A stretch of 64,000 nucleotides of DNA. Source: Betaproteobacteria bacterium (GTDB lineage: Bacteria; Pseudomonadota; Gammaproteobacteria; Burkholderiales; Burkholderiaceae_C). Below, one piece after another: positions 14,718 to 25,988 of the stretch. Each line of letters opens with the position of its first letter. Position 1 is the first letter of the stretch. A program made the position numbers and the translations under genes. The notes beneath the pieces are model-generated. The model was not told where the DNA came from. It made no database searches and saw only the letters and a list, made by a program, of their open reading frames with translations. Location: assembly GCA_043739385.1 (NCBI GenBank), contig JAYUED010000008.1:893-64892 (forward strand). Direction: 5' to 3'.

Positions 14718-15506
14718 ATGTCCAAACTTGTTGTCATCACCGGTGCCTCGAGCGGATTGGGCCAAGCGTTGGCGCTGCGATTTTTCCAAGCAGGCTACCG
14801 GCTGGCGTTGGTTGCACGTCGGGTTTCAGAAATAGAAAGCTGGGCCATTGCAAACCAAATCGACGCTGCAAGCTATCAAATCTACAGTGCTGATGTATCC
14901 GACTCGAACGCCATGGTGGCTGTAGGCAACGACTGCCTCCAATCCCAAGGCGTACCCGATGTAGTGATTGCCAATGCGGGCATCAGTGTGGGCATTGACA
15001 CCAGCTGTCGCGCTGACATTGACGTGATGGCCCGTGTGTTTGCCACCAACAATATCGGCATGATGGCGACCTTTCACCCCTTTGTGGAGGCTATGGTCGC
15101 ACGCGCGGCAACAGGCACTGAGAGTACTTTGGTGGGTATTGGCAGCGTGGCTGGTATACGTGGATTGCCTGGCCATGGTGCTTACAGCGCGAGCAAGGCA
15201 GCTGCCATCACGTATTTGGAAAGTTTGCGCGGTGAAATGAGACCACTGGGTTTGCGGGTAGTGACGGTGTGCCCTGGCTATATCGATACGCCTCTGACAC
15301 AAAAAAACAGCTACACGATGCCATTTTTGATGCGATCAGACGACTTTGCTGAAAAAGCGTTCCAAGCCATTGTTAAGGGGGTCAGCTACTGCGTTATTCC
15401 GTGGCAAATGGGCGTAGTTGCTAAGCTGCTGCGTTTGCTGCCAAATGTGCTGTATGACAAGATACTTGCAGGCAGGCCTCGCAAGCACCGAGATGGGGGG
15501 CACTAA
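14718..15506 (+). CDS. Short-chain dehydrogenase/reductase (SDR)
   Basis: VVITGASSGLGQALA Rossmann motif and YSASKAA catalytic motif. Confidence 0.9.
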   Translation: MSKLVVITGASSGLGQALALRFFQAGYRLALVARRVSEIESWAIANQIDAASYQIYSADVSDSNAMVAVGNDCLQSQGVPDVVIANAGISVGIDTSCRADIDVMARVFATNNIGMMATFHPFVEAMVARAATGTESTLVGIGSVAGIRGLPGHGAYSASKAAAITYLESLRGEMRPLGLRVVTVCPGYIDTPLTQKNSYTMPFLMRSDDFAEKAFQAIVKGVSYCVIPWQMGVVAKLLRLLPNVLYDKILAGRPRKHRDGGH

Positions 15507-15577
15507 ACTAGGTAAACGCAGATGTGAGACTAGACTTTACCCGCCAACCTTGCGAAAGGCCGATGATTTACCAATGC

Positions 15578-15603
15578 AAAAAGGCTCCCGAGGGAGCCTT
15601 TTT
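15578..15603. terminator. Bidirectional rho-independent terminator
   Basis: aaaaaggctcc-cgag-ggagccttttt, between the convergent SDR and RRM protein genes. Confidence 0.75.
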
Positions 15604-15675
15604 GTGACCACACTGTAAGTATGATTACTTTTATCATTGGACTTTACAGCCCAAATGACGATCAGTAGCTAACGA

Positions 15676-16152
15676 TTAATAACCGCCGCCGCCGGAACGA
15701 CCACCGCCGCCACCGCCGTAACCACCACCGCCGCCGGAACGACCACCACCGCCGCCGCCGCCGCCAGCACCGCCGCCGCCGTACGGGCTACGGAAACCAC
15801 CACCGCCGCCGCCGCCTTCACGGCCACCGCCGCCAGCACCGCCGCCGAAACCACCACCGCCACCGCCACCGCCGCCGAAGCCGCCGGTACGTGGAGGACG
15901 TGCCTCCATCGGACGTGCTTCGTTAACGACAACGCTACGGCCACCCAAAGAAGCACCGTTCATGCCGCCAATGGCAGCTTGTGCTTCTGGATCGCTAGCC
16001 ATTTCGACAAAGCCGAAGCCCTTCGAACGACCGGTATCACGTTCCATCATTACTTTTGCGCTGGTGACTGCGCCAAATTGGCCAAAGGCCTGTTCCAAAT
16101 CGCTATCGCGAACCGAGTACGGCAAATTGCCGACGTACAGTTTGTTGCCCAT
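15676..16152 (-). CDS. RRM-type RNA-binding protein with a Gly-rich C-terminal tail
   Basis: RNP2 LYVGNL and RNP1 KGFGFVEM, then about 75 residues of GGGG/R/Y low complexity encoded by a (GGN)n tract at 15676-15900. Confidence 0.92.
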   Translation of the reverse strand: MGNKLYVGNLPYSVRDSDLEQAFGQFGAVTSAKVMMERDTGRSKGFGFVEMASDPEAQAAIGGMNGASLGGRSVVVNEARPMEARPPRTGGFGGGGGGGGGFGGGAGGGGREGGGGGGGFRSPYGGGGAGGGGGGGGRSGGGGGYGGGGGGRSGGGGY

Positions 16153-16347
16153 GAAGGGACTCCTATAAACACATGAGAAAAGCGATGGAGTCCCGAAAAC
16201 GCATTCAACTAACCTGAGAGACGCGAAACTGACCTTAACACCGCAAACTTTACCTGAGCGTTGAAACCCAGATTGACAGATTATGCTTCATTTTTTATAT
16301 GTTGGTGTAAAAATTCATAAGGAAGACGCAAAAACGTAAGCTAAGCC

Positions 16348-16539
16348 TTAATCTTCACGGTAGTTTCGCCATTCGCGCATGGCGTGTCGCATCGTCAAAA
16401 CCTGACGTTCGAAAAGCGGACAGGCTTTGCAGGCAAGCATATGGAATCGCAGTGCAAAGCGGTTGGATACGTTCAAGGCGGTGTCTTCCCTGGCAATCAG
16501 CAGAGCAGCGACTTCTTTGCAAGTTCGGCGAAATATCAT
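16348..16539 (-). CDS. Small soluble zinc-binding (ZAS, RsrA-like) anti-sigma factor
   Basis: 63 aa from the ATG at 16539, with an ATGA overlap onto the sigma factor stop. Contains C7-x25-H33-x3-C37-x2-C40 (HMLACKAC) and no TM segment. The track ORF starts earlier, at 16578. Confidence 0.75.
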   Translation of the reverse strand: MIFRRTCKEVAALLIAREDTALNVSNRFALRFHMLACKACPLFERQVLTMRHAMREWRNYRED

Positions 16540-17120
16540 GGCGCTATCCGGTTCCCAAACCAGTTGAGCTCCAGGCATTCACGTAAACGCAAACGAGCCC
16601 GGTGCAGTTGAACATACAGGTTTGTCGCGCTGAGGTTCATTTCCTTACAGATCTCTTCGGTTGACAGTTCCAGCCACTCGCGCATCAAAAACACCCTCCC
16701 CAAGCTAGCGGGCAGCGCGTCAGCGCAGGCTTCGAGTATTTTGAGAAACTGTTGCGAGCGTAAATCCTGCTCAGGGTTGCCCCAGTCCGACGGCTTATTG
16801 ATGAAATGTCCATCACTCTTGAACATCAATGCATCCAGTTCTTCTGAGCCATCGTCGCCGTCACTGGTGTCCATAGACACCTCACGCGAGCGAGAGCGTA
16901 GTTGGTCTATCACCTTGTGTTTAAGGATGCCGACAAGCCATGTTTTGAGTTGCGATTTGCTCTGAAACGCCTGCGGCTTACTTAGTGCCGCAAGTGTAGT
17001 TTCTGAAACGGCATCTTCAGCCCAGGAATCGTTTCGCAACTGCATGCGGGCAAAGCGCAGCAAGTAACCGCGATGGCTAGCGAGTTGCATTTCAAAGTCT
17101 GAAGCGGATGCGTTTGGCAT
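16536..17120 (-). CDS. ECF-family RNA polymerase sigma factor
   Basis: 194 aa with region 2 (ETTLAAL...TWLVGILKHKVIDQLR) and region 4 (VFLMREWLELSTEEICKEMNLSATNLYVQLHRARLRLRECL). Confidence 0.92.
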   Translation of the reverse strand: MPNASASDFEMQLASHRGYLLRFARMQLRNDSWAEDAVSETTLAALSKPQAFQSKSQLKTWLVGILKHKVIDQLRSRSREVSMDTSDGDDGSEELDALMFKSDGHFINKPSDWGNPEQDLRSQQFLKILEACADALPASLGRVFLMREWLELSTEEICKEMNLSATNLYVQLHRARLRLRECLELNWFGNRIAP

Positions 17121-17217
17121 GCGTCGGTGCGTCGTAGTTTTTAACCATCATCGCACAGCCAGATGTCAGGATAAACAGACGTAAAAACCTTTGAATTTCA
17201 AAACTTTTGCACACACG

Positions 17218-17257
17218 TGTAAGAAGTTGCTCGGTACACTGACCAATGCTCAACCAG
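17218..17257 (+). promoter_or_regulatory. Candidate ECF-type promoter upstream of the locus-1 precursor
   Basis: TGTAAGAAGTT is identical to 21851-21861. Both copies are followed 23 nt later by AACCAG, and both lie about 95-100 nt upstream of the precursor start codon. Confidence 0.45.
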
Positions 17258-17311
17258 TACCCTTGCTGGTGATGCTTATCTCTCAACCCATTCACCCTCT
17301 AGGAGTTTTTC

Positions 17312-17590
17312 ATGAACCAACGTGCCCTTATTGCTGCTGCTGCCGCTACTGTGTTGTCTTCCATGCTGGTTGCCTTACCCGCTGCAGCACAAGAGAAAGA
17401 AAAATGCTTCGGTATTGTCAAGTCGGGTCAAAACGACTGCGCTAATCTCTCTGGCTCCCATTCTTGCGCTGGCCAGTCCAAGATGGACATGGGTGTTGAT
17501 GAGTGGAAATATGTCGCTAAAGGTACTTGTGTCGGCATGAAAGGCATGACCGCTGACCAAGTCAAGATGAAGATGGACAAGAAAAGCTGA
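17312..17590 (+). CDS. bufA: DUF2282-type (BufA1-like) bufferin precursor peptide
   Basis: 92 aa with Sec signal [27 protein letters not shown], then [29 protein letters not shown]...KGTCVGMKG (4 Cys). An RBS (aggag) lies 7 nt upstream. Confidence 0.85.
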
Positions 17591-17653
17591 TCACAGTTTT
17601 ACTGCAAACTCAATGGTTGCTGAGCTCTTTTTCTCCAGCGTTAGCTTAGCCCC

Positions 17654-18589
17654 ATGAGTGCTTTTCCTGGCGCCACTCTTGTTCCTACCATCTCTTCTGT
17701 TGGTGCAGGTGTAGGTTGGCGCCATCCCCATTACGCGGCCTTGATGGACACACGTCCCGCGCTGGGTTTCATCGAAGTGCATTCTGAAAATTTCTTTGGC
17801 GCAGGCGGTGCTGCTTTGGCAGTACTACAAGAAGCCCGTGCCCATTACCCACTTAGCTTGCACGGTGTAGGTTTGGGTTTGGGCTCTGCCATCGGCATTG
17901 ACGACTGGCATCTTGGCCAGCTCGCTAAGCTGGTTGAACGCACTGAACCCTGGCTGGTAAGCGACCACGCCTGCTTCGCTAGAGGCCACTTGGCGCAAGG
18001 GCAGTCGACTCAGCCGATTCATGCTGCTGATTTACTCCCCATCCCTTTCACCAGCGAGGCGCTGGAAATACTTTGCACCAACGTGCAGCGGGTGCAAGAC
18101 CGCTTACAACGGCCCATTGCCGTCGAAAACCTCTCTGCGTACATCCGTTGGCAGGGTGATGAAATGTCTGAGCCGCAATTCCTTGCCGCGTTAGCCCAGC
18201 GTACCGGGTGCAAGCTGCTGATCGACGTGAATAATATTTACGTCAACGCGTTAAATGATGCACCCCCCGAAAACCAAGATTTAAAAATCAAAACAGCTAC
18301 AGCATTGCAGCATTGCAAACACTGGCTAAATGCAATACCACCCCAAGCCGTGGCCGAGCTGCATCTCGCCGGGCACACCGACTGTGGCGATATCGTCATT
18401 GACGACCATAGCCGCCGTGTGTGCGCCGAGGTCTGGTCGTTGTACAGCCACGCTGTCCAGTGCTTTGGCGCTGTTGCCACGTTAATCGAATGGGATACCG
18501 ACATCCCACCATTGCAAGTCTTACTGGATGAAGCTGCCCGTGCCAACCAATTTTCCAACATTGCTATAGCCATGTCGAGGCAGCTATGA
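17654..18589 (+). CDS. bufB: MNIO (DUF692) family enzyme, BufB-like
   Basis: 311 aa with [61 protein letters not shown] and [11 protein letters not shown]. Confidence 0.88.
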
Positions 18590-19440
18590 CCCTGCGCCAT
18601 AGTGCCACCCCTACGCTCGCATCTAGCCAGCAAGCCTTGCTGAGCACCCTATTTGCCGCAGGCCGTGGCGCTACCACTGTTGATGCTGAATTTATAGCTA
18701 ACTATGCTTATGGGGATTGCACAAGAGGGCTAAACGCTTATAAAAGCAACGCCCATAGCCTCGCCGAGCGCAGTTTGGCGTCTGTGTATCCCGTGCTTGT
18801 CCAATTGTTGGGCGATGAGAGTTTTGCCGCTTTTGCCCGGGCTTTTTGGCATGCTTATCCGCCTCAGCGTGGCGATTTGGCCCACTGGGGAGGCGCGCTT
18901 GCTGACTTTACCGACGCCAGCTCGCAACTTGTCGATGTGCCCTACCTCGCCGATGTCGCCCGCGTGGAGTGGGCCTTGCACCAGGCCGCTACCGCCCCGG
19001 ACGCCGATGCCGACTTGGCAACTTTGCACCACTTGATGGAGCAAGACCCGGCGGTTCTGCATCTGCGCTTGGCTCCCGGCCTAAAAGTGGTAGCTAGCGG
19101 CTGGCCTGTAGTCAGCCTTGTGAACGCCCACATCGACTCAGCCGGCCAAACGCCCAACCTGACTCGGGCCAGTGAGCGTTTGCAAAACGGTACTGCTGAA
19201 ACGGCGCTGATCTGGCGACAAGGCTTCAAACCCCAAGTTCGGGAAGCCTTGACTGGTGAAGCCAGTTTTGTGATCGCACTACAAACTGGTCACCCGTTGG
19301 GCGAGGCCTTGAGCGTCGTTTGCTCCACCACTGACCCCGACACTTTCGACTTTGCCCTGTGGCTACCCCAAGCCGTGTCCACAGGCTTGCTACTGGCTGT
19401 GGACTGCTTGATTCCTGGCAGTTTCGGCTCCACCCTTTGA
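18586..19440 (+). CDS. bufC: DUF2063-family MNIO partner protein, BufC-like
   Basis: 284 aa, with a 4-nt ATGA overlap onto the DUF692 gene. Its C-terminal half aligns by eye to the C-terminal half of the 22256-24025 protein. Confidence 0.75.
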
Positions 19441-19461
19441 TTTTTTCGGAGAACCTCCTTT

Positions 19462-19950
19462 ATGTACCGTATTTCACCTCCTAACGCCTTACAAAAAAAC
19501 CTGCAACGCGGCATCTCTCTCTGGAATCTGCTCAGCCGCGGCTTGGGCAGCCTGCAAGCACCCCTCAGCTTGGCAGCCCGGCTCTATGTTGCCCACGCAT
19601 TTTGGCTCTCAGGCCTTACAAAACTCCAGGACTGGGGTACCACGCTGGCGTTGTTTGCTAACGAGTACCACGTGCCTTTGCTGCCCACGCCCGTAGCCGC
19701 AGTGATGGGAACTACAGGCGAGTTGGTGTTGCCCGTGTTGCTGGTTTTGGGCTTTGGTGGTCGCTTTGCCGCCTTGGGCTTGTCCGTGGTGAACGTAATC
19801 GCCGTCATAAGCTTGATGGATATCGCGCCTGCTGCTCTGCAACAGCATGTGCTCTGGGGCACCTTGCTGGTTGCACTGGCCGTGTTCGGTCCCGGTGCAT
19901 GGTCGACAGAGCGCTGGGTTTGGCCTTGGGTGCAAGCCAAACTGCGCTAA
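19462..19950 (+). CDS. bufD: DoxX-family membrane protein, BufD-like
   Basis: 162 aa, 4 TM segments, with ARLYVAHAFWLSGLTKL. It is the last gene of the operon. Confidence 0.8.
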   Translation: MYRISPPNALQKNLQRGISLWNLLSRGLGSLQAPLSLAARLYVAHAFWLSGLTKLQDWGTTLALFANEYHVPLLPTPVAAVMGTTGELVLPVLLVLGFGGRFAALGLSVVNVIAVISLMDIAPAALQQHVLWGTLLVALAVFGPGAWSTERWVWPWVQAKLR

Positions 19951-19971
19951 AAATAAGGGACACTATGGCGC

Positions 19972-20400
19972 ATGAGCCTGTCCCCAGAAATCGCCTCCCC
20001 AGAGATTGCTTTGCTGGCCGCGCGCTTCACCGAAATCCGCCACCACACCCTTGCTCTGGTCGAGGGCTTGAGCGCTGAGGACCGCATGGTGCAGCTCATG
20101 CCCGACGCCAGCCCCGTCAAATGGCATCTTGCCCACACCACCTGGTTCTTTGAGACTTTTGTGCTCGAACCCGCTGAATCGGCTCAGGCGACCGGCTTTA
20201 CGCCTTTTGATGTGGCCTTTCGCATGCTGTCGCGCCCCAGTTTCCCGCAGGTGTTGGCCTATCGCCATGATGTAGAGGTGCGCATTCACCGCCCGCTCGG
20301 TGGCCACTCCTGCGGAGCACATTCGCAGCAGTTACCGCAATTTTTTCCCGCCCTCTGCACGCTGGCAATTCGCCGGTTTGCGGCTGGCACATAACCTGTA
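19972..20400 (+). pseudogene. egtB: Relic of egtB (hercynine/sulfoxide synthase): N-terminal DinB_2 part fused out of frame to the extreme C-terminus
   Basis: Frame 1 reads ...DASPVKWHLAHTTWFFETFVLEP...[12 protein letters not shown]. Another frame at 20291-20400 reads [32 protein letters not shown]. The whole relic is about 430 nt, whereas a full-length EgtB needs about 1.3 kb. Confidence 0.7.
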
Positions 20401-20426
20401 ACTTTGTAACTCAAGGCGAATTCACC

Positions 20427-21440
20427 ATGTCTTCTTTGCGCCATAACTTAGCTTTGGTGACGGCTTCCACGAGCCCGGACACGCCTGTGCCCCCACCCCA
20501 CTTAACCACGCCGCAAGGTGATTTTGCCCACGATCTGATCGCCGCACTGTCTCACGCACCACACAGAATTTCGCCCAAATACTTTTACGACGCCCCTGGT
20601 TCCCAGCTGTTTGACCGCATTTGCACTCTGCCCGAGTACTACCCCACAATCACTGAGTTGGGAATCCTCCAGCGCCACGCTGCCGAGATGACAGCGCTAA
20701 TGGGCCCTTCCGCTGAATTGGTGGAGTTCGGCGCAGGTTCTCTTCAGAAGGTGCGCCTGTTGCTCGACGCCATGGATTCCCCTGCCCGTTACGTGCCCAT
20801 CGACATTTCCGGCGACCACTTGGCTGATGCTGCCCGCACGCTGGCACTCGACTACCCGCTGTTGCAAGTACAGCCGCTGGTGGCTGATTACACCGCTGCA
20901 TTGACCTTGCCTGCCAAGCTGCACAGCGCTGGGCAGCGCATCGGTTTCTTCCCCGGCTCCACCATTGGTAACTTTACGCCCGATGAGGCATTGCGCTTCC
21001 TTCGCATGGCCGCTGACGTGCTGGAGGGTGGGGCACTGCTACTGGGTGCTGACCTCATCAAAGACCCCGCCACACTGCATGCTGCCTACAACGACGCGCA
21101 GGGCGTTACCGCGGCTTTCAACCTGAATTTATTGGCCCGTGCCAACCGTGAGTTGGGCGCTGACTTTGATCTCACTCAGTTTGCTCACAGTGCTTTTTAT
21201 AACCCACCCCACCAGCGTATCGAGATGCACCTGATGGCGCGACAGCACCAAATTGTGCGTGTCTGTGGGCGCAGCTTTTCGCTGGCTGAAGGCTTCAGCC
21301 TGCATACCGAAAACTCGCATAAATTTACGCTAGATGGATTGCAGGCACTGGCCGTTGAAGCCGGTTTCACCCCTGGGCCGGTTTGGACAGACCCCGCCCG
21401 CCTCTTCAGCGTTCATTGGTTGCAAGCACCCACGCGGTAA
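20427..21440 (+). CDS. egtD: L-histidine N-alpha-methyltransferase (EgtD family)
   Basis: ISPKYFYDAPGSQLFDRICTLPEYYPT, FGAGS, FFPGSTIGNF, AYNDAQGVTAAFNLNLL and HQRIEMHL, colinear with EgtD. Confidence 0.88.
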   Translation: MSSLRHNLALVTASTSPDTPVPPPHLTTPQGDFAHDLIAALSHAPHRISPKYFYDAPGSQLFDRICTLPEYYPTITELGILQRHAAEMTALMGPSAELVEFGAGSLQKVRLLLDAMDSPARYVPIDISGDHLADAARTLALDYPLLQVQPLVADYTAALTLPAKLHSAGQRIGFFPGSTIGNFTPDEALRFLRMAADVLEGGALLLGADLIKDPATLHAAYNDAQGVTAAFNLNLLARANRELGADFDLTQFAHSAFYNPPHQRIEMHLMARQHQIVRVCGRSFSLAEGFSLHTENSHKFTLDGLQALAVEAGFTPGPVWTDPARLFSVHWLQAPTR

Positions 21441-21493
21441 AGACTTCCTAAAGACTTGAATACTTGTTTACCCACGCCTTAAAGGACTGTTTT

Positions 21494-21775
21494 ATGAAAG
21501 CTATTTGGAAAAATACCGTGATTGCGCAAAGCGATGACACCGTTCTGGTCGAAGGCAATCACTACTTCCCCATGGCTTCGCTCAACCGCGACGTCATTGT
21601 CCACAGCAACCACCGCAGTACCTGTGCTTGGAAAGGCGAGGCCAGCTACTATTCGCTGTTGGTCGATGGTGAGCTGAACCAGGACGCTGTTTGGTTTTAT
21701 GCCACCCCCAAGCCCGATGCCGAAATGGTGCGAGACCGCATTGCGTTTTGGAAGGGCGTACAAGTAGTTGCTTGA
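21494..21775 (+). CDS. DUF427 domain protein
   Basis: MKAIWKNTVIAQSDDTVLVEGNHYFP...TCAWKGEASYYSL...AVWFY, about 93 aa. Confidence 0.75.
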   Translation: MKAIWKNTVIAQSDDTVLVEGNHYFPMASLNRDVIVHSNHRSTCAWKGEASYYSLLVDGELNQDAVWFYATPKPDAEMVRDRIAFWKGVQVVA

Positions 21776-21850
21776 CTGGCGTTTGTCCTAGTGGAATAAA
21801 TGCACAAAAGCAGGCTTTCAAAAATAGTTTTCGGTTATTTTCATAATCGA

Positions 21851-21890
21851 TGTAAGAAGTTCACTCCCTAGCATGACAAACTGAAACCAG
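21851..21890 (+). promoter_or_regulatory. Candidate ECF-type promoter upstream of the locus-2 precursor
   Basis: TGTAAGAAGTT-N23-AACCAG has the same architecture as 17218-17257. It lies 100 nt upstream of the ATG at 21951. Confidence 0.45.
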
Positions 21891-21950
21891 TGCAGCACAA
21901 ACAATTGTGTTGCATTGGCCTTCAACCCCTTCATTTCTAGGACGATTTCC

Positions 21951-22238
21951 ATGAACACCACTTCCGTTAAAGCAGTAGCTTCTTTTGGCCTCACCGCCGC
22001 CATGCTCGCACTGTCCGCTGCCGCCTTCGCCGCTGACGCTCCCATGGGTGCGATGGGCAAGTCCATTGGCGCTAACGACCAAGTTCACTGCTACAAAGTT
22101 AACGACTGCAAAGGCACCGCTGATTGCAAAACAGCTGACCATAGCTGCAAAGGCATGAACACTTGCAAGGGTCAGGGCTTCAAGGCTTTGTCCGCTGGGC
22201 AGTGCCTGACCAAAGGTGGCACCATCTCCGACCTGTGA
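21951..22238 (+). CDS. bufA: 6-Cys secreted precursor peptide (BufA2-like)
   Basis: Signal MNTTSVKAVASFGLTAAMLALSAAAFA|ADAP. The core HCYKVNDCKGTADCKTADHSCKGMNTCKGQGFKALSAGQC has three C-K-G triads. The gene sits immediately upstream of an MNIO gene. Confidence 0.75.
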   Translation: MNTTSVKAVASFGLTAAMLALSAAAFAADAPMGAMGKSIGANDQVHCYKVNDCKGTADCKTADHSCKGMNTCKGQGFKALSAGQCLTKGGTISDL

Positions 22239-22255
22239 CCTGACCCGTTACTTCA

Positions 22256-24025
22256 GTGAACGCCAGCGTCTCGCTGACTGCACCCAGTCCAGGTTTTGGG
22301 CTGGGATTGCGTACTCCACATTACCCTGATTTTTTAGCCCAAACCCAGCGTTTCACCGGACTGGACTGGCTGGAAATCATCACCGACAACTTCTTGGTCG
22401 ACGGCGGTAAACCGCTGGTGATGTTGGAACGCATTCGCCGCGATTACCCCATGGCGATGCACGGCGTGGCGATGTCGCTGGGCGCACCTGGCGGCGCTGA
22501 TGTTGCCTACTTGAAACGCGTCAAAGCGTTGGCTGACCGTGTGCAGCCGCTCTGGGTGTCTGACCACTTGTGTTGGATCGGCCCTGGCCCCGAGCAGCTT
22601 TACGATTTGTATCCCTTGCCCTATACCGACGAGGCTGCCCGCCACGTCATCCAAAGTATCAGACAAGCGCAAGACATCTTGCAACGCCGTTTGGTATTAG
22701 AAAACGTGTCCAGCTACATCGCCTTCAATACATCGGCGTGCAGCGAATGGCAATTTTTAAGCCATATTGCGCAAGAGGCGGACTGCCTTTTACTGGTGGA
22801 CGTAAACAACATTTTTGTAAGCAGCGTGAACCACGGTTTTAACGCCTTGGACTATCTCGACGGTCTGCCCGCCAACCGTGTGCAGCAAATCCACCTCGCA
22901 GGTCATACCGACCGAGGTGACCATATCATCGACACACACGACCACCCGGTGGCCGCACCTGTCTGGCAGCTGTATCGCGAAGCGTGCCAGCGGTTCGGTG
23001 CTGTTGCCACCATGATCGAGCGCGACGACCATATTCCACCGTTGAATACCTTACTGGACGAATTGGCCGTGGCCCGTCGCACAGCCAACGAGGTGCTTTA
23101 CGCCACTGCGCTGGTCAGCCCTAGTTCGTATGCATCAAGCCATGGAAAAGACCAAAACCAAAATCATAAGATTGGCTTGCAGTGCTCTACAGATGAGCAC
23201 AGTGGGCTGTCAAAACTACAGCGAAACCTGTCCACCTACATTTTGAACCCTGCTGCCCTGCATGAAGCCACCCTGGCCCGTGCGTTGCTGCCTGAAAGCA
23301 AAGTGGATGCGGGCAGCGATTCGAATACTCCCGATACCAACGATACCAACCCGACAGGACAAGCCGCCCAGCGCCTAGGCATCTATCACCACGCCTACCG
23401 CGCCCGGATGGCGGAGGTACTGGCCGACAGCTTTGCCAAAATCAACCTCTACATGGGCAGCGACGCCTTCGAAGCCGAAGCCACCGCATTTGCAGTTGCC
23501 CATCCCCCCCTTACCCGTCGCCTAGGCCGATACGGCGCAGACCTGCCGAACTTTTTGGCAGAGCGCTACCCGCACAATCCCGAGTTGTTTGAATTAGCCC
23601 AGTTGGATTGGGATTTGCGCGAATGCTTTGACGGCCCCGATATCCCCGCGCTTGACGCCGCCAGTGCGGCCAGCGATGTGGCCCAAAGTTGGTTGACACG
23701 CAGTGCCCCGTTGCACCCTAGCGTGCGTCTCCGCAACCTCAGCACCAACGCTGTGCAACTCTGGAAAGCCATCGACGACGACCACGAGGTTCCCGCACCC
23801 GTCACGCTGGAGGTGCCACGCACCCTCTTGGTCTGGCGCAAAGGCTTGCAACCGCATTTCCAGACGCTGGACGCCGCCCCGGCACAGTTCATTGCCTGTT
23901 TATCCGAAGGCCAGTCCATCTGGCAAACCTGCGAAGCTTTGCCCGAACTTGCCGCGCCTGAAGCGCTGGGCAGCTGGCTCCAGGCTTGGTGGGCAGAAGG
24001 TTGGCTGCGCGCCGCAGAGTCTTAG
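22256..24025 (+). CDS. Fused MNIO (DUF692) - DUF2063 protein
   Basis: 589 aa with a GTG start. The N-terminal ~285 aa carry AMHGVAMSLGA, WVSDHLCW, LENVSSY, LLVDVNNIFVSS, IHLAGHT, IIDTHDHP and FGAVATMIERD. A Ser/Asn/Asp/Thr/Pro-rich linker follows. The C-terminal ~270 aa are DUF2063-like (RLGIYHHAYRARM...ELAQLDWDL). Confidence 0.85.
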   Translation: MNASVSLTAPSPGFGLGLRTPHYPDFLAQTQRFTGLDWLEIITDNFLVDGGKPLVMLERIRRDYPMAMHGVAMSLGAPGGADVAYLKRVKALADRVQPLWVSDHLCWIGPGPEQLYDLYPLPYTDEAARHVIQSIRQAQDILQRRLVLENVSSYIAFNTSACSEWQFLSHIAQEADCLLLVDVNNIFVSSVNHGFNALDYLDGLPANRVQQIHLAGHTDRGDHIIDTHDHPVAAPVWQLYREACQRFGAVATMIERDDHIPPLNTLLDELAVARRTANEVLYATALVSPSSYASSHGKDQNQNHKIGLQCSTDEHSGLSKLQRNLSTYILNPAALHEATLARALLPESKVDAGSDSNTPDTNDTNPTGQAAQRLGIYHHAYRARMAEVLADSFAKINLYMGSDAFEAEATAFAVAHPPLTRRLGRYGADLPNFLAERYPHNPELFELAQLDWDLRECFDGPDIPALDAASAASDVAQSWLTRSAPLHPSVRLRNLSTNAVQLWKAIDDDHEVPAPVTLEVPRTLLVWRKGLQPHFQTLDAAPAQFIACLSEGQSIWQTCEALPELAAPEALGSWLQAWWAEGWLRAAES

Positions 24026-24035
24026 AATTTTTGTT

Positions 24036-25988
24036 TTAATACTGCCCACCATAGTCAGCCACTTTGTCCCGCCATACGCTACGGTAATACACATTGCCTG
24101 TGAGCGCGCCAAGTGCGTCATCTGACTTCACGATGAACTCAATCCAGACTCGCGGACCATCAATGCGAAGGTACGAGTTGCCTGCGTTGCCGGGCAGTGC
24201 GCTGGAGTTCGGGAAGACCCCGAAGTCGGCCGCGCCGCCGATGCCAGGCGCGTAAGCGACGTAGGTGCTGGCCAGCGCGGTATCTGTCAGATAAACCCCG
24301 AGCAGGGCCTGAGCCACGTCGGCGGCCTGAGTGGCCACCCAAGCCTGAACAACGGCTTTCACGGCCGTCTGCTGCGCAGCAGTCAGCGTGCTGACCAAGA
24401 CACCGCGCCCGGTAGTGCCCGTGGGGTAGGCAACGGTTTTGTACCGGGTGTCGCCCGAAATGGTGGGGCCCATCATCAAATCAGTCATTGTGGTTGCAAG
24501 CATGGCGGGACTGGTCGTGACCGTAGCCGTAGTGGTGCTACTTTGCAGGCTGGTCGCCAGCGCCGAGACTGCAAGCCGATGGCTTTCCATGGCTGCATGC
24601 GGGGTGCCGCTGGTGTTGGCTGTGCTTGCGGTGTTGTTCACGGTGTAGACACCGCCGCTACTGAATGTCCAGTTTGGGGGCTGCGCACCAATGAACATTG
24701 GCGTGGCGCTGGGCAGGCTGGTGTTGTAGGTGATGTTGTAGGTCAGCTGGTGGCCGGTCAGCTGTAGTGTCCAAGGTAGCGTGGCCGAGGGTTGGCCAAT
24801 GAATGCGACGGAATACAGCGCTGCGCCTGCACCGGACAGCGGGTTGAGGCTGGCAACCGCATTGTCGGACAGGCGTATTTCGGACATCAACGTGGTTCCC
24901 GTGGTGCTCAGCGCTGCGGAAATCAGCGCGTCTGCTGCGCTTTGTTGCAGCACGGAGAGTGTTGCCGTGTTCAGCCGCAAGCCATGGCGTGCGCCGACAC
25001 TATCGCTCCAGGCGCTGGCATTGCCCAAGTTGTTGGCAAACAGCACCGTGGCGCTGGACAACGACGAGCCGGCAACGATGGCCTGGCTTGTGTTCAGCGT
25101 GTTGATGAAGGCATTAGCCGCAGCTACCACTACGGCGGTATTGCTGTTGCTGCCGACAGGTGTAACCACCAAAGTGGCCACACTGCTGGCGACTGAGCCT
25201 ATGCTGTTCGTCACTATCACGTAGTAATTGCCCGCATTCAGCGCCGCCACGGTAGTGACTGCATAGCTGGCATTGGTGGCTGACGGAATGGCGACGGCGT
25301 CTTTGAACCACTGGTAGGTGAGGTCAGTACCCGTCGCCTGAACTGCAAAGCTGGCCGCTGTACCAGCGGTCACGGTCAGCGATACCGGTGCTGCGGGGAT
25401 GGCCGGTGCAATGGCTGTGGCGCTGATGGTTAACGTCACTGTGCTGCTGGTCACTGCCTTGGCCCCGTTGCGGCTACTGGATACCACCACGTAAAAACTG
25501 TCCACTGCTGTGGCTGCCGTGGTGCTGCTGGCAGTGTACGAAGAGCCGGTCGCGCCGACGATCACCGTGCTGTTGCGAAACCATTGGTAGGTCAAACCGA
25601 CGCCTGTTGCCACCACCGACAAATTTGTACTTTTACCCGCTGTTACCGTGACCGACTGGGGTTGCACTGTGATAACCGGGTCAACGGTGATGGTCAGTGT
25701 GGCGGCGCTGCTGGTTACGCTGCCCAGCGAATTCGTCACGGTGACGGTGTAGCTACCAGCCGTTTGGGTTGCGTAAGTGCTGGCCGTGGCACCGGCTACC
25801 GCCGTTCCGTCCTTGAACCACTGGTAAGCCAACCCGCCCCCTGACGCTACCACGGTGAACACCGTGGGCTGGTCGCCAGTTGACGTAACGGCTATGGGCT
25901 GCGAGGTGATAGTCGGTAGAGTTGTTGCAGTTTTGGAGACTTCGCCGGGGCCGCATGCGCTCATAAGCAGGGTCGCACTCAGCGCCAA
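24036..25988 (-). CDS. Lipoprotein with 3 Ig-like repeats and a C-terminal DUF3500-like domain
   Basis: LLMSAC lipobox, then three ~85-aa repeats each containing (L/T)YQWF(K/R)(D/N). The C-terminal ~370 aa contain YSVAFIGQPS..PWTLQLTGHQL and YLRIDGPRVWIEF...YYRSVWRDKVADYG. See the feature at 25994-26029 for the start. Confidence 0.75.
   Translation of the reverse strand: MALSATLLMSACGPGEVSKTATTLPTITSQPIAVTSTGDQPTVFTVVASGGGLAYQWFKDGTAVAGATASTYATQTAGSYTVTVTNSLGSVTSSAATLTITVDPVITVQPQSVTVTAGKSTNLSVVATGVGLTYQWFRNSTVIVGATGSSYTASSTTAATAVDSFYVVVSSSRNGAKAVTSSTVTLTISATAIAPAIPAAPVSLTVTAGTAASFAVQATGTDLTYQWFKDAVAIPSATNASYAVTTVAALNAGNYYVIVTNSIGSVASSVATLVVTPVGSNSNTAVVVAAANAFINTLNTSQAIVAGSSLSSATVLFANNLGNASAWSDSVGARHGLRLNTATLSVLQQSAADALISAALSTTGTTLMSEIRLSDNAVASLNPLSGAGAALYSVAFIGQPSATLPWTLQLTGHQLTYNITYNTSLPSATPMFIGAQPPNWTFSSGGVYTVNNTASTANTSGTPHAAMESHRLAVSALATSLQSSTTTATVTTSPAMLATTMTDLMMGPTISGDTRYKTVAYPTGTTGRGVLVSTLTAAQQTAVKAVVQAWVATQAADVAQALLGVYLTDTALASTYVAYAPGIGGAADFGVFPNSSALPGNAGNSYLRIDGPRVWIEFIVKSDDALGALTGNVYYRSVWRDKVADYGGQY

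Follow-up and report, generated by a model that had tools for sequence, protein, structure and literature searches.

Bufferins are copper-binding peptides whose very large family was recognised recently. They are exported by the Sec route and chelate copper in the periplasm; MNIO and DUF2063 proteins turn the two central cysteines of the BufA1 precursor into thiooxazoles, the outer two form a disulfide, and the DoxX protein is not needed for modification (PMC11626156, PMC12452194). The characterised buf1/gig regulators are a sigma factor of the extracytoplasmic function (ECF) class, from group ECF16, SigF or RpoQ, and its partner NrsF or RsqA, a protein with six transmembrane (TM) segments and periplasmic cysteines (PMC3511200, PMC11626156, PMC13492112). 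A genome survey of MNIO clusters gives sigma factors and NrsF as the only bufferin-associated regulators (PMC12452194). Triggers are known for a few model strains, all of which use a membrane anti-sigma factor (NrsF/RsqA) or other regulators. Here we describe the bufferin genes of a 64-kb window, the whole stretch of DNA analysed (64,000 nt of contig JAYUED010000008.1, a metagenomic scaffold from an uncultured Comamonadaceae bacterium). In this window an ECF sigma gene lies divergent from a buf1 operon (bufA1BCD). The six-TM NrsF/RsqA with its periplasmic cysteines (PMC3511200) is replaced by a 63-residue cytoplasmic zinc-finger protein.

The buf1 operon has the same gene order and protein families (DUF2282 with four cysteines, MNIO, DUF2063 and DoxX) as C. 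vibrioides bufA1BCD and C. metallidurans gigPABT, and the divergent ECF sigma/anti-sigma pair is a further feature in common with Buf1/gig systems. SigF of Caulobacter controls both buf1 and buf2 (PMC11626156), and the buf1 and buf2 loci of the window appear to share a regulator likewise. By sequence, the regulator pair is different from the published SigF/NrsF (RpoQ/RsqA) membrane type. We looked for a membrane NrsF (PF06532, about six TM segments), and found that the gene after the sigma gene encodes 63 residues and has as homologues zf-HC2 proteins of 59–104 residues.

Small zinc-binding anti-sigma (ZAS) proteins are known to control other MNIO/DUF2063/DoxX clusters. In N. meningitidis, sigmaE (NMB2144) and NMB2145/MseR are co-transcribed with NMB2140-2143, and the Cys4/His30/Cys34/Cys37 spacing of MseR equals that of RsrA (PMC2893595). 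In H. influenzae, RpoE2 and the 67-residue HrsE control a cluster of DoxX, periplasmic-peptide, DUF692 and DUF2063 genes (PMC7907618). MseR, HrsE and the window anti-sigma factor are all small, cytoplasmic and encoded after an ECF sigma gene, and the motif Cys-x25-His-x3-Cys-x2-Cys (26/4/3 spacing) is identical in them. The initial annotation had singled out the regulator pair as the noteworthy part of the locus. Its difference from SigF/NrsF stands, but small ZAS anti-sigma factors had already been described for the MNIO clusters of Neisseria and Haemophilus. Those clusters are of the Hvf/oxazolin type and are not known to be of the DUF2282 or Buf2 type. The periplasmic peptide of H. influenzae is annotated as COG3767 (PMC7907618), whereas the window precursor belongs to DUF2282, and the Neisseria and Haemophilus regulons centre on msrAB, which is absent from the 64-kb window. 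The biosynthetic part of the locus is ordinary and belongs to a known large family. The regulatory part differs from known systems in joining an MseR/HrsE-type anti-sigma factor to bufferin clusters of the DUF2282 and 6-Cys types, whose only regulators described so far were SigF/NrsF. Neither part is likely to surprise a specialist greatly.

Our preferred reading, to which we assign a probability of about 0.6, is that of a bufferin regulon under an ECF sigma factor and a cytoplasmic zinc-finger anti-sigma factor, with feedback through the anti-sigma factor only. The divergent sigma factor would read a shared promoter at the bufA1 and bufA2 operons and, in relatives, at a periplasmic redoxin gene. 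The anti-sigma factor, a three-helix C-H-C-C zinc finger, would keep the sigma factor inactive in the cytoplasm, and a membrane NrsF would not be involved. Sigma factor would be supplied constitutively, an internal promoter would transcribe the anti-sigma gene alone, and activation would be self-limiting, with the wiring of C. glutamicum SigH/RshA. Least certain is the trigger: a thiol-reactive agent in the cytoplasm may attack the Zn-thiolate site and free the sigma factor, and candidate agents are hypochlorite- or chlorite-type oxidants and thiophilic metals such as Cu(I)/Au.

For comparison we scanned GTDB, with one genome per species, and obtained 567 relatives of the sigma factor. The loci of the best 80, all from Comamonadaceae/Burkholderiaceae, were used together with one Polaromonas locus (81 related loci). 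The relatives of the window are all Comamonadaceae, among them Ramlibacter, Hydrogenophaga, Rhodoferax, Polaromonas and Curvibacter. Alignment of the regions ahead of bufA1 revealed a bipartite element about 85–125 nt ahead of the bufA1 start codon, consisting of GTAAGAA, an unconserved 14-nt spacer, (A/T/C)GAC(C/T)AA and, 4 nt further on, CAACC. Spacer and flanks diverge among loci, but the blocks do not vary. In its short form this motif, which is new here, is GTAAGAA-N14-WGACCAA, with a GTAAG-to-GAC distance of 17 nt, which is typical of ECF promoters.

A position weight matrix (PWM) was built from 27 bufA1 sites and run over the window and about 0.74 Mb of the related loci; shuffled windows give 0.1 matches per 64 kb at scores of at least 16. 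The window has three matches and no others: one ahead of bufA1, one ahead of bufA2 and one within the sigma gene. The bufA1 site scores 27.0 (17216-17246) and belonged to the training set, whereas the bufA2 match (19.9) is independent of the bufA1-trained matrix. The only other bufA2 within reach, in one relative (L051), has a motif with a score of 27.0. In total, 121 matches scoring at least 16 were found in the 0.74 Mb: 36 at bufA1, 69 internal to the sigma gene, 12 at the redoxin gene, one at bufA2 and three relics beside the sigma gene. No match at this threshold fell outside these five classes, and in 40 of 41 loci the motif lies within 220 nt upstream of bufA1. A simple scan for sigma-70 promoters and terminators found nothing in the intergenic regions upstream of bufA1 and bufA2. 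We consider it likely, from the distribution of these sites, that the adjacent ECF sigma factor reads GTAAGAA-N14-WGACCAA at bufA1, bufA2, the redoxin gene of relatives and the anti-sigma gene.

The motif resembles known ECF promoters in part. The Caulobacter sigmaF promoter (GTAACC-N16-CGAA) differs from it but also begins with GTAA, and the Neisseria sigmaE promoter (-35 GTMAGBWTT, 12–13 nt, -10 CGTCTAAH; PMC2893595) has the same -35 core and spacing. A candidate Neisseria-like promoter, GTCAGGATA...CGTAAAA at 17166-17190, was rejected for its spacer of only 6 nt. A (C)AACCAG block (17251-17257 and 21885-21890, + strand) stands 4 nt downstream of the -10 element in each of the two promoters, bufA1 and bufA2, and is kept in most relatives. 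The CAACC/(C)AACCAG block is probably the region of the start site, and could instead be a further regulatory site.

The internal element of the window, GTAAGGA-N13-CGACAAA, lies about 75 nt upstream of the anti-sigma ATG. Of the 81 related loci, 74 have a corresponding site, at +442 to +475 relative to the start of the sigma gene, where it codes for I-C-K-E...x-T-N of sigma region 4.2. We examined a codon alignment of 82 sigma genes, in which the mean GC content at third positions is 0.78. Cys158 is encoded by TGT in 80 of 82 sequences (other Cys codons of the same genes are TGT in 24% of cases), Lys159 by AAG in 79 of 79, and codon 165, whose amino acid differs among the sequences (P/A/S/T), ends in G in all 82. 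A third-position entropy of 0.2 bits or less (median 1.19 bits) occurs in just 4 of the 175 degenerate codon columns, and three of these four fall in the internal element. On these codon statistics the site is under nucleotide-level selection, and the frozen synonymous positions beneath the motif tie it to this sigma/anti-sigma unit. We read the element as a probable promoter that depends on the sigma factor and serves only the anti-sigma gene.

A search for an autoregulatory promoter found none: in all 81 loci, the strand that carries the sigma gene has no ECF-type motif upstream of that gene. The sigma gene has no upstream promoter of its own type, and the sigma factor is probably made constitutively, with the anti-sigma factor inducible by it. 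By eye, a tentative housekeeping-type promoter, TGTGCGATGAT, precedes the sigma gene in about 18 of 82 loci (the group of the window, its nearest relative L007 and Ramlibacter), mostly within about 35 nt of the start; the simple sigma-70 scan does not list it. In redoxin-containing loci, TGTGCGATGAT overlaps the spacer and -10 element of the divergent redoxin promoter. The equivalent wiring has been shown experimentally for C. glutamicum SigH/RshA, where housekeeping promoters serve the sigma gene and a SigH-dependent promoter serves rshA alone, an arrangement thought to end the response quickly (PMC3489674). In Neisseria, by contrast, the sigma and anti-sigma genes end the MNIO operon and are autoregulated with it, whereas in the window they are divergent and only the anti-sigma gene is under predicted sigma control. 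This divergent arrangement, with sigma control apparently limited to the anti-sigma gene, also sets the regulatory part apart from the Neisseria system.

The start of the anti-sigma gene (16539) overlaps the sigma stop codon as ATGA (16536-16539). The longest mechanical open reading frame (ORF) encodes 76 residues (16348-16578), and the exact 63-residue product is the form called in public assemblies. Its match to NF052368 spans positions 2–48 of the 48-position model and exceeds the cut-off by a narrow margin. In profile searches the protein itself matched no Pfam family, NrsF included, and most of its homologues carry PF13490 (zf-HC2). A search with its profile retrieved 3369 short zf-HC2 proteins, and the 120 matches listed are all close Comamonadaceae relatives, with no named Neisseria or Haemophilus protein among them. 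The initial annotation had described an anti-sigma factor of 63 residues without a TM segment and with C7...H33-x3-C37-x2-C40, and this holds: all four residues are invariant in 37 homologues of 59–104 residues. An AlphaFold2 model (predicted local distance difference test score 84) has helices at 7–16, 24–36 and 41–58 and no TM segment, and places the zinc ligands at the N-terminus of helix 1, the C-terminus of helix 2 and the N-terminus of helix 3. A sequence search of the PDB with the protein was empty even at E = 10. For NMB2145 we could line up only pieces rebuilt from mutagenesis primers (MKKCRDIA... and ...ISIYTHLLFCPYCREYKR; PMC2893595, Table 1) with the window protein (...TCKEVA... 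and ...FALRFHMLACKACPLFER); common to both are an N-terminal C(K/R)(E/D)(V/I)A and an H-x-L-x-C-x-x-C segment. For the sigma factor, ECF13 and ECF18 were candidate groups; the RskA-like anti-sigma factors of the ECF18 literature (PMC7826278) do not fit.

The short anti-sigma gene directly follows the sigma gene in all 81 related loci, and bufA1BCD is divergent beside the sigma gene in 41 of them: in 14 directly, as in the window, and in 27 behind a redoxin gene, which the window lacks. The redoxin (AhpC/TSA-Redoxin, thioredoxin-fold) carries a signal peptide and is encoded between sigma and bufA1 (for example, L005 4626-5210, - strand). Fourteen of the 27 redoxin genes have their own copy of the motif (GTAAGGA-N14-CGACCAA), typically about 10–40 nt from the sigma start on the opposite strand. 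Two loci, L024 (4950-4980, - strand) and L037 (4948-4978, - strand), have lost the redoxin-buf1 operon yet keep relic ECF-type promoters next to the sigma gene. In L024 the next gene encodes a CDP-alcohol phosphatidyltransferase, about 200 nt away.

Several points weigh against the proposed regulon. The regulatory model comes from comparative sequence only, so that its promoters, start sites and induction are all predicted. As the PWM was trained on bufA1 sites, its bufA1 matches are circular and only the bufA2, redoxin and internal matches are independent. A Foldseek search of the anti-sigma model against the PDB returned no match at E < 1, only three-helix matches at chance level. The other such points bear on particular steps, and are considered with the explanations that they favour.

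The step most exposed is the sensing. Regulation may be as proposed and the zinc site structural, with sigma release by regulated proteolysis, an anti-anti-sigma partner or titration, in which case the signal could come from the envelope or periplasm, periplasmic copper for example. We hold this to be unlikely, and the evidence is divided. The initial annotation had proposed a thiol-redox switch like RsrA. The Cys/His spacing does equal C11/H37/C41/C44 of RsrA as given in PMC2893595, and Streptomyces SigR/RsrA and C. glutamicum SigH/RshA are likewise soluble ZAS systems with the ligand spacing of the window protein. The residues that set RsrA redox sensitivity (E39, E40, L45 and E46; PMC3177212) are, however, replaced by L35, A36, P41 and L42 (H-M-L-A-C-K-A-C-P-L against K33FEHHFEECSPCLEK47), and such sensitivity is reported for only a subset of ZAS proteins (PMC3177212). 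RsrA and RshA are also longer than 63 residues, and their promoter consensus, regulon (the thioredoxin system) and phylum differ. RsrA has about 105 residues. H2O2, diamide and singlet oxygen each drew no response from Neisseria MseR (NMB2145; PMC2893595), and the characterised bufferin operons respond to periplasmic copper through NrsF-type sensors (PMC11626156, PMC3511200, PMC10304878). A role for DUF2063 as anti-anti-sigma factor was suggested by Price et al. (bioRxiv 10.1101/072470), but DUF2063 is now known as the MNIO partner in precursor modification (PMC11626156).

In favour of a sensor, the window anti-sigma factor is small and soluble, and it offers neither a membrane segment nor an extra domain for taking up an outside signal. 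Cys4, Cys34 and Cys37 of MseR are essential to its function (PMC2893595), the Haemophilus pair RpoE2/HrsE reacts to HOCl and H2O2 (PMC7907618), and three bacteria depend on DUF692/DUF2063 operons for chlorite resistance (bioRxiv 10.1101/072470). The presence of a periplasmic redoxin in the predicted regulon, and of ergothioneine synthesis on the buf1 transcript of the nearest relative, would also count for a thiol-reactive trigger. We give the zinc site slightly less than an even chance of being a sensor of cytoplasmic thiol-reactive stress.

It is also improbable that the internal GTAAGGA-N13-CGACAAA is no promoter but a protein-coding or mRNA constraint on region 4.2, with the anti-sigma factor only co-translated with the sigma factor. 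The element does code for the conserved C-K-E...T-N segment, the ATGA overlap already provides translational coupling, and the window copy scores just 14.7, a level at which shuffled windows give 0.8 matches per 64 kb. Coding constraint would not, however, explain the use of the non-preferred TGT or the fixed third base of codon 165 under a variable amino acid, neighbouring third positions are saturated, and the spacing of the blocks equals that of the intergenic promoters.

Because 40 of the 81 sigma/anti-sigma loci have no adjacent bufferin operon, the pair is not a regulator dedicated to the cluster but a fixed chromosomal module that often has the operon beside it. The module is flanked by an RRM-protein gene and a kdsD-kdsC-lptC block, which are syntenic in Polaromonas. 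These facts, together with the failure to demonstrate in C. metallidurans that the adjacent RpoQ drives gig (PMC10304878, PMC13492112), are what speaks for the least probable explanation, that of a stress module beside which the buf operon merely inserted. The shared motif would then belong to another regulator, whether a two-component system that senses copper, a protein of the CueR type or a different ECF sigma factor. Against this, the motif of the same ECF geometry inside the sigma gene, with its protected synonymous sites, is hard to explain unless this sigma factor reads it, relic promoters persist beside the sigma gene after operon loss, and the bufA1 and bufA2 upstream regions yielded no sigma-70-like promoter.

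Under the proposed regulon, the window and at least 41 related Comamonadaceae loci indicate a second, widespread control logic for bufferins, with a cytoplasmic zinc-finger anti-sigma factor and a promoter shared by Buf1, Buf2 and the redoxin. It bears on whether bufferins answer cytoplasmic thiol or oxidant stress besides periplasmic copper, and it offers handles for study: three start sites predicted near 17252 (+), 21887 (+) and 16614 (-), the four ligand residues, a 28-bp motif suited to regulon mapping in complete genomes, and a clade with cultured members, such as Curvibacter gracilis ATCC BAA-807, Ramlibacter sp. WS9 and Polaromonas sp. YR568. A stronger and rather doubtful version is that the minimal three-helix Zn(Cys3His) anti-sigma factor directly senses cytoplasmic Cu(I)/Au(I) or chlorine oxidants and, via constitutive sigma factor and anti-sigma-only feedback, switches on two periplasmic bufferin pathways together with a periplasmic redoxin and, in the ancestral state, the synthesis of ergothioneine. 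If so, bufferin production would be commanded from inside the cell and not by periplasmic copper, and the copper phenotypes would be joined with the chlorite/HOCl phenotypes reported for MNIO operons.

Table 1. Features of the bufferin region, in window coordinates.
Feature	Position	Strand	Evidence or description
63-residue cytoplasmic ZAS (zf-HC2) anti-sigma factor, MseR/HrsE-like	16348..16539	-	NF052368 "antisigmaE", 51.5 bits (cut-off 50)
ECF sigma factor	16536..17120	-	Pfam Sigma70_r2 and r4_2; PRK12520, 293 bits (cut-off 255); TIGR02943, 232 bits
Internal ECF-type promoter in sigma gene (predicted)	16621..16651	-	TGTAAGGAA-N13-CGACAAA; PWM score 14.7
TGTGCGATGAT, possible extended -10 housekeeping-type promoter of sigma gene (tentative)	17147..17157	-	27 nt upstream of sigma start
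bufA1 promoter (predicted)	17216..17255	+	-35 GTAAGAA 17219-17225; 14-nt spacer; -10 TGACCAA 17240-17246; CAACC 17251-17255
BufA1 precursor (DUF2282)	17312..17590	+	PF10048, E = 1.9e-22, residues 29-78
BufB1, MNIO (DUF692) maturase	17654..18589	+	PF05114, E = 4.7e-95; NF050167 MNIO_BufB equivalog, 316 bits (cut-off 310)
BufC1, DUF2063 partner	18586..19440	+	PF09836, E = 3.7e-15 (N-terminal domain)
BufD1, DoxX membrane protein, last gene of buf1 operon	19462..19950	+	PF07681, E = 3.9e-15
egtB remnant	19972-20394	+	140 residues; DinB-like N-domain only; short internal deletion
egtD, intact	20427-21440		
bufA2 promoter (predicted)	21849..21880	+	GTAAGAA 21852-21858; N15; TGACAAA 21874-21880; PWM score 19.9
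BufA2 precursor, 6-Cys Buf2 type, signal peptide	21951..22238	+	NF050166 Cu_RiPP_BufA2, 96.6 bits (cut-off 60)
Fused BufB2-BufC2, 589 residues	22256..24025	+	PF05114, E = 5.8e-102 (residues 14-276); PF09836, E = 7.4e-15 (residues 321-434); MNIO_BufB, 350 bits

The ORFs drawn by the initial annotation are all in place (Table 1), and profile hidden Markov model searches gave significant matches to the DUF2282, DUF692 (MNIO), DUF2063 and DoxX models and to the ECF sigma family, as it had predicted. On the profile matches of BufA1, BufB1, BufC1 and BufD1, bufA1BCD is an ordinary Buf1/gig-type bufferin cluster. The BufA1 sequence bears out the description of a secreted precursor with four cysteines: it has a hydrophobic Sec signal ending AAA|QE, cysteines at C32, C43, C52 and C73, and a Met-rich C-terminal tail. 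BufB1 aligns with the DUF692 structure PDB 3BWW (E = 2.3e-28), and a PDB search with the DUF2063 protein BufC1 gave no match. The ATGA overlap reported between the MNIO and DUF2063 genes is real (18586-18589) and provides translational coupling. An attenuator role for a hairpin between bufA1 and bufB1 was rejected, its z of -1.94 being unconvincing, and an Rfam scan of 15500-24500, the bufA1 and bufA2 leaders included, found no family above noise.

The interval of the initial annotation covered the buf1 operon correctly and omitted a second bufferin locus, buf2 (21849-24025), 2 kb downstream, which has no DoxX gene. In public assemblies bufA2 is annotated as a gene of 95 residues. BufB2 and BufC2 are separate proteins in C. 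vibrioides, whereas in the window MNIO and DUF2063 are fused in one ORF. This fusion, the redoxin gene on the operon in relatives and egtB-egtD on the operon in the sub-lineage of the window are unlike known Buf1/gig systems.

Between buf1 and buf2 lie the truncated egtB, the intact egtD and a DUF427 gene. The nearest relative, L007, encodes a full EgtB of 418 residues (948-2204, - strand), and the egtB ATG overlaps the doxX stop codon by 4 nt, which places ergothioneine synthesis on the buf1 transcript. In the sub-lineage of the window and L007, the ergothioneine genes thus appear to ride on this transcript. The egtD of L007 is apparently frameshifted, and the ergothioneine pathway seems to be in decay in both L007 and the window.

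Just past the anti-sigma gene is a gene for an RRM_1 RNA-binding protein with a Gly-rich tail of about 80 residues (15676-16152, - strand). Most related loci keep this gene as a neighbour, and it is frequently duplicated. On the other side, convergent with the buf2 locus, a 650-residue protein with several immunoglobulin-like domains and a C-terminal DUF3500 is encoded at 24036-25988 (- strand).

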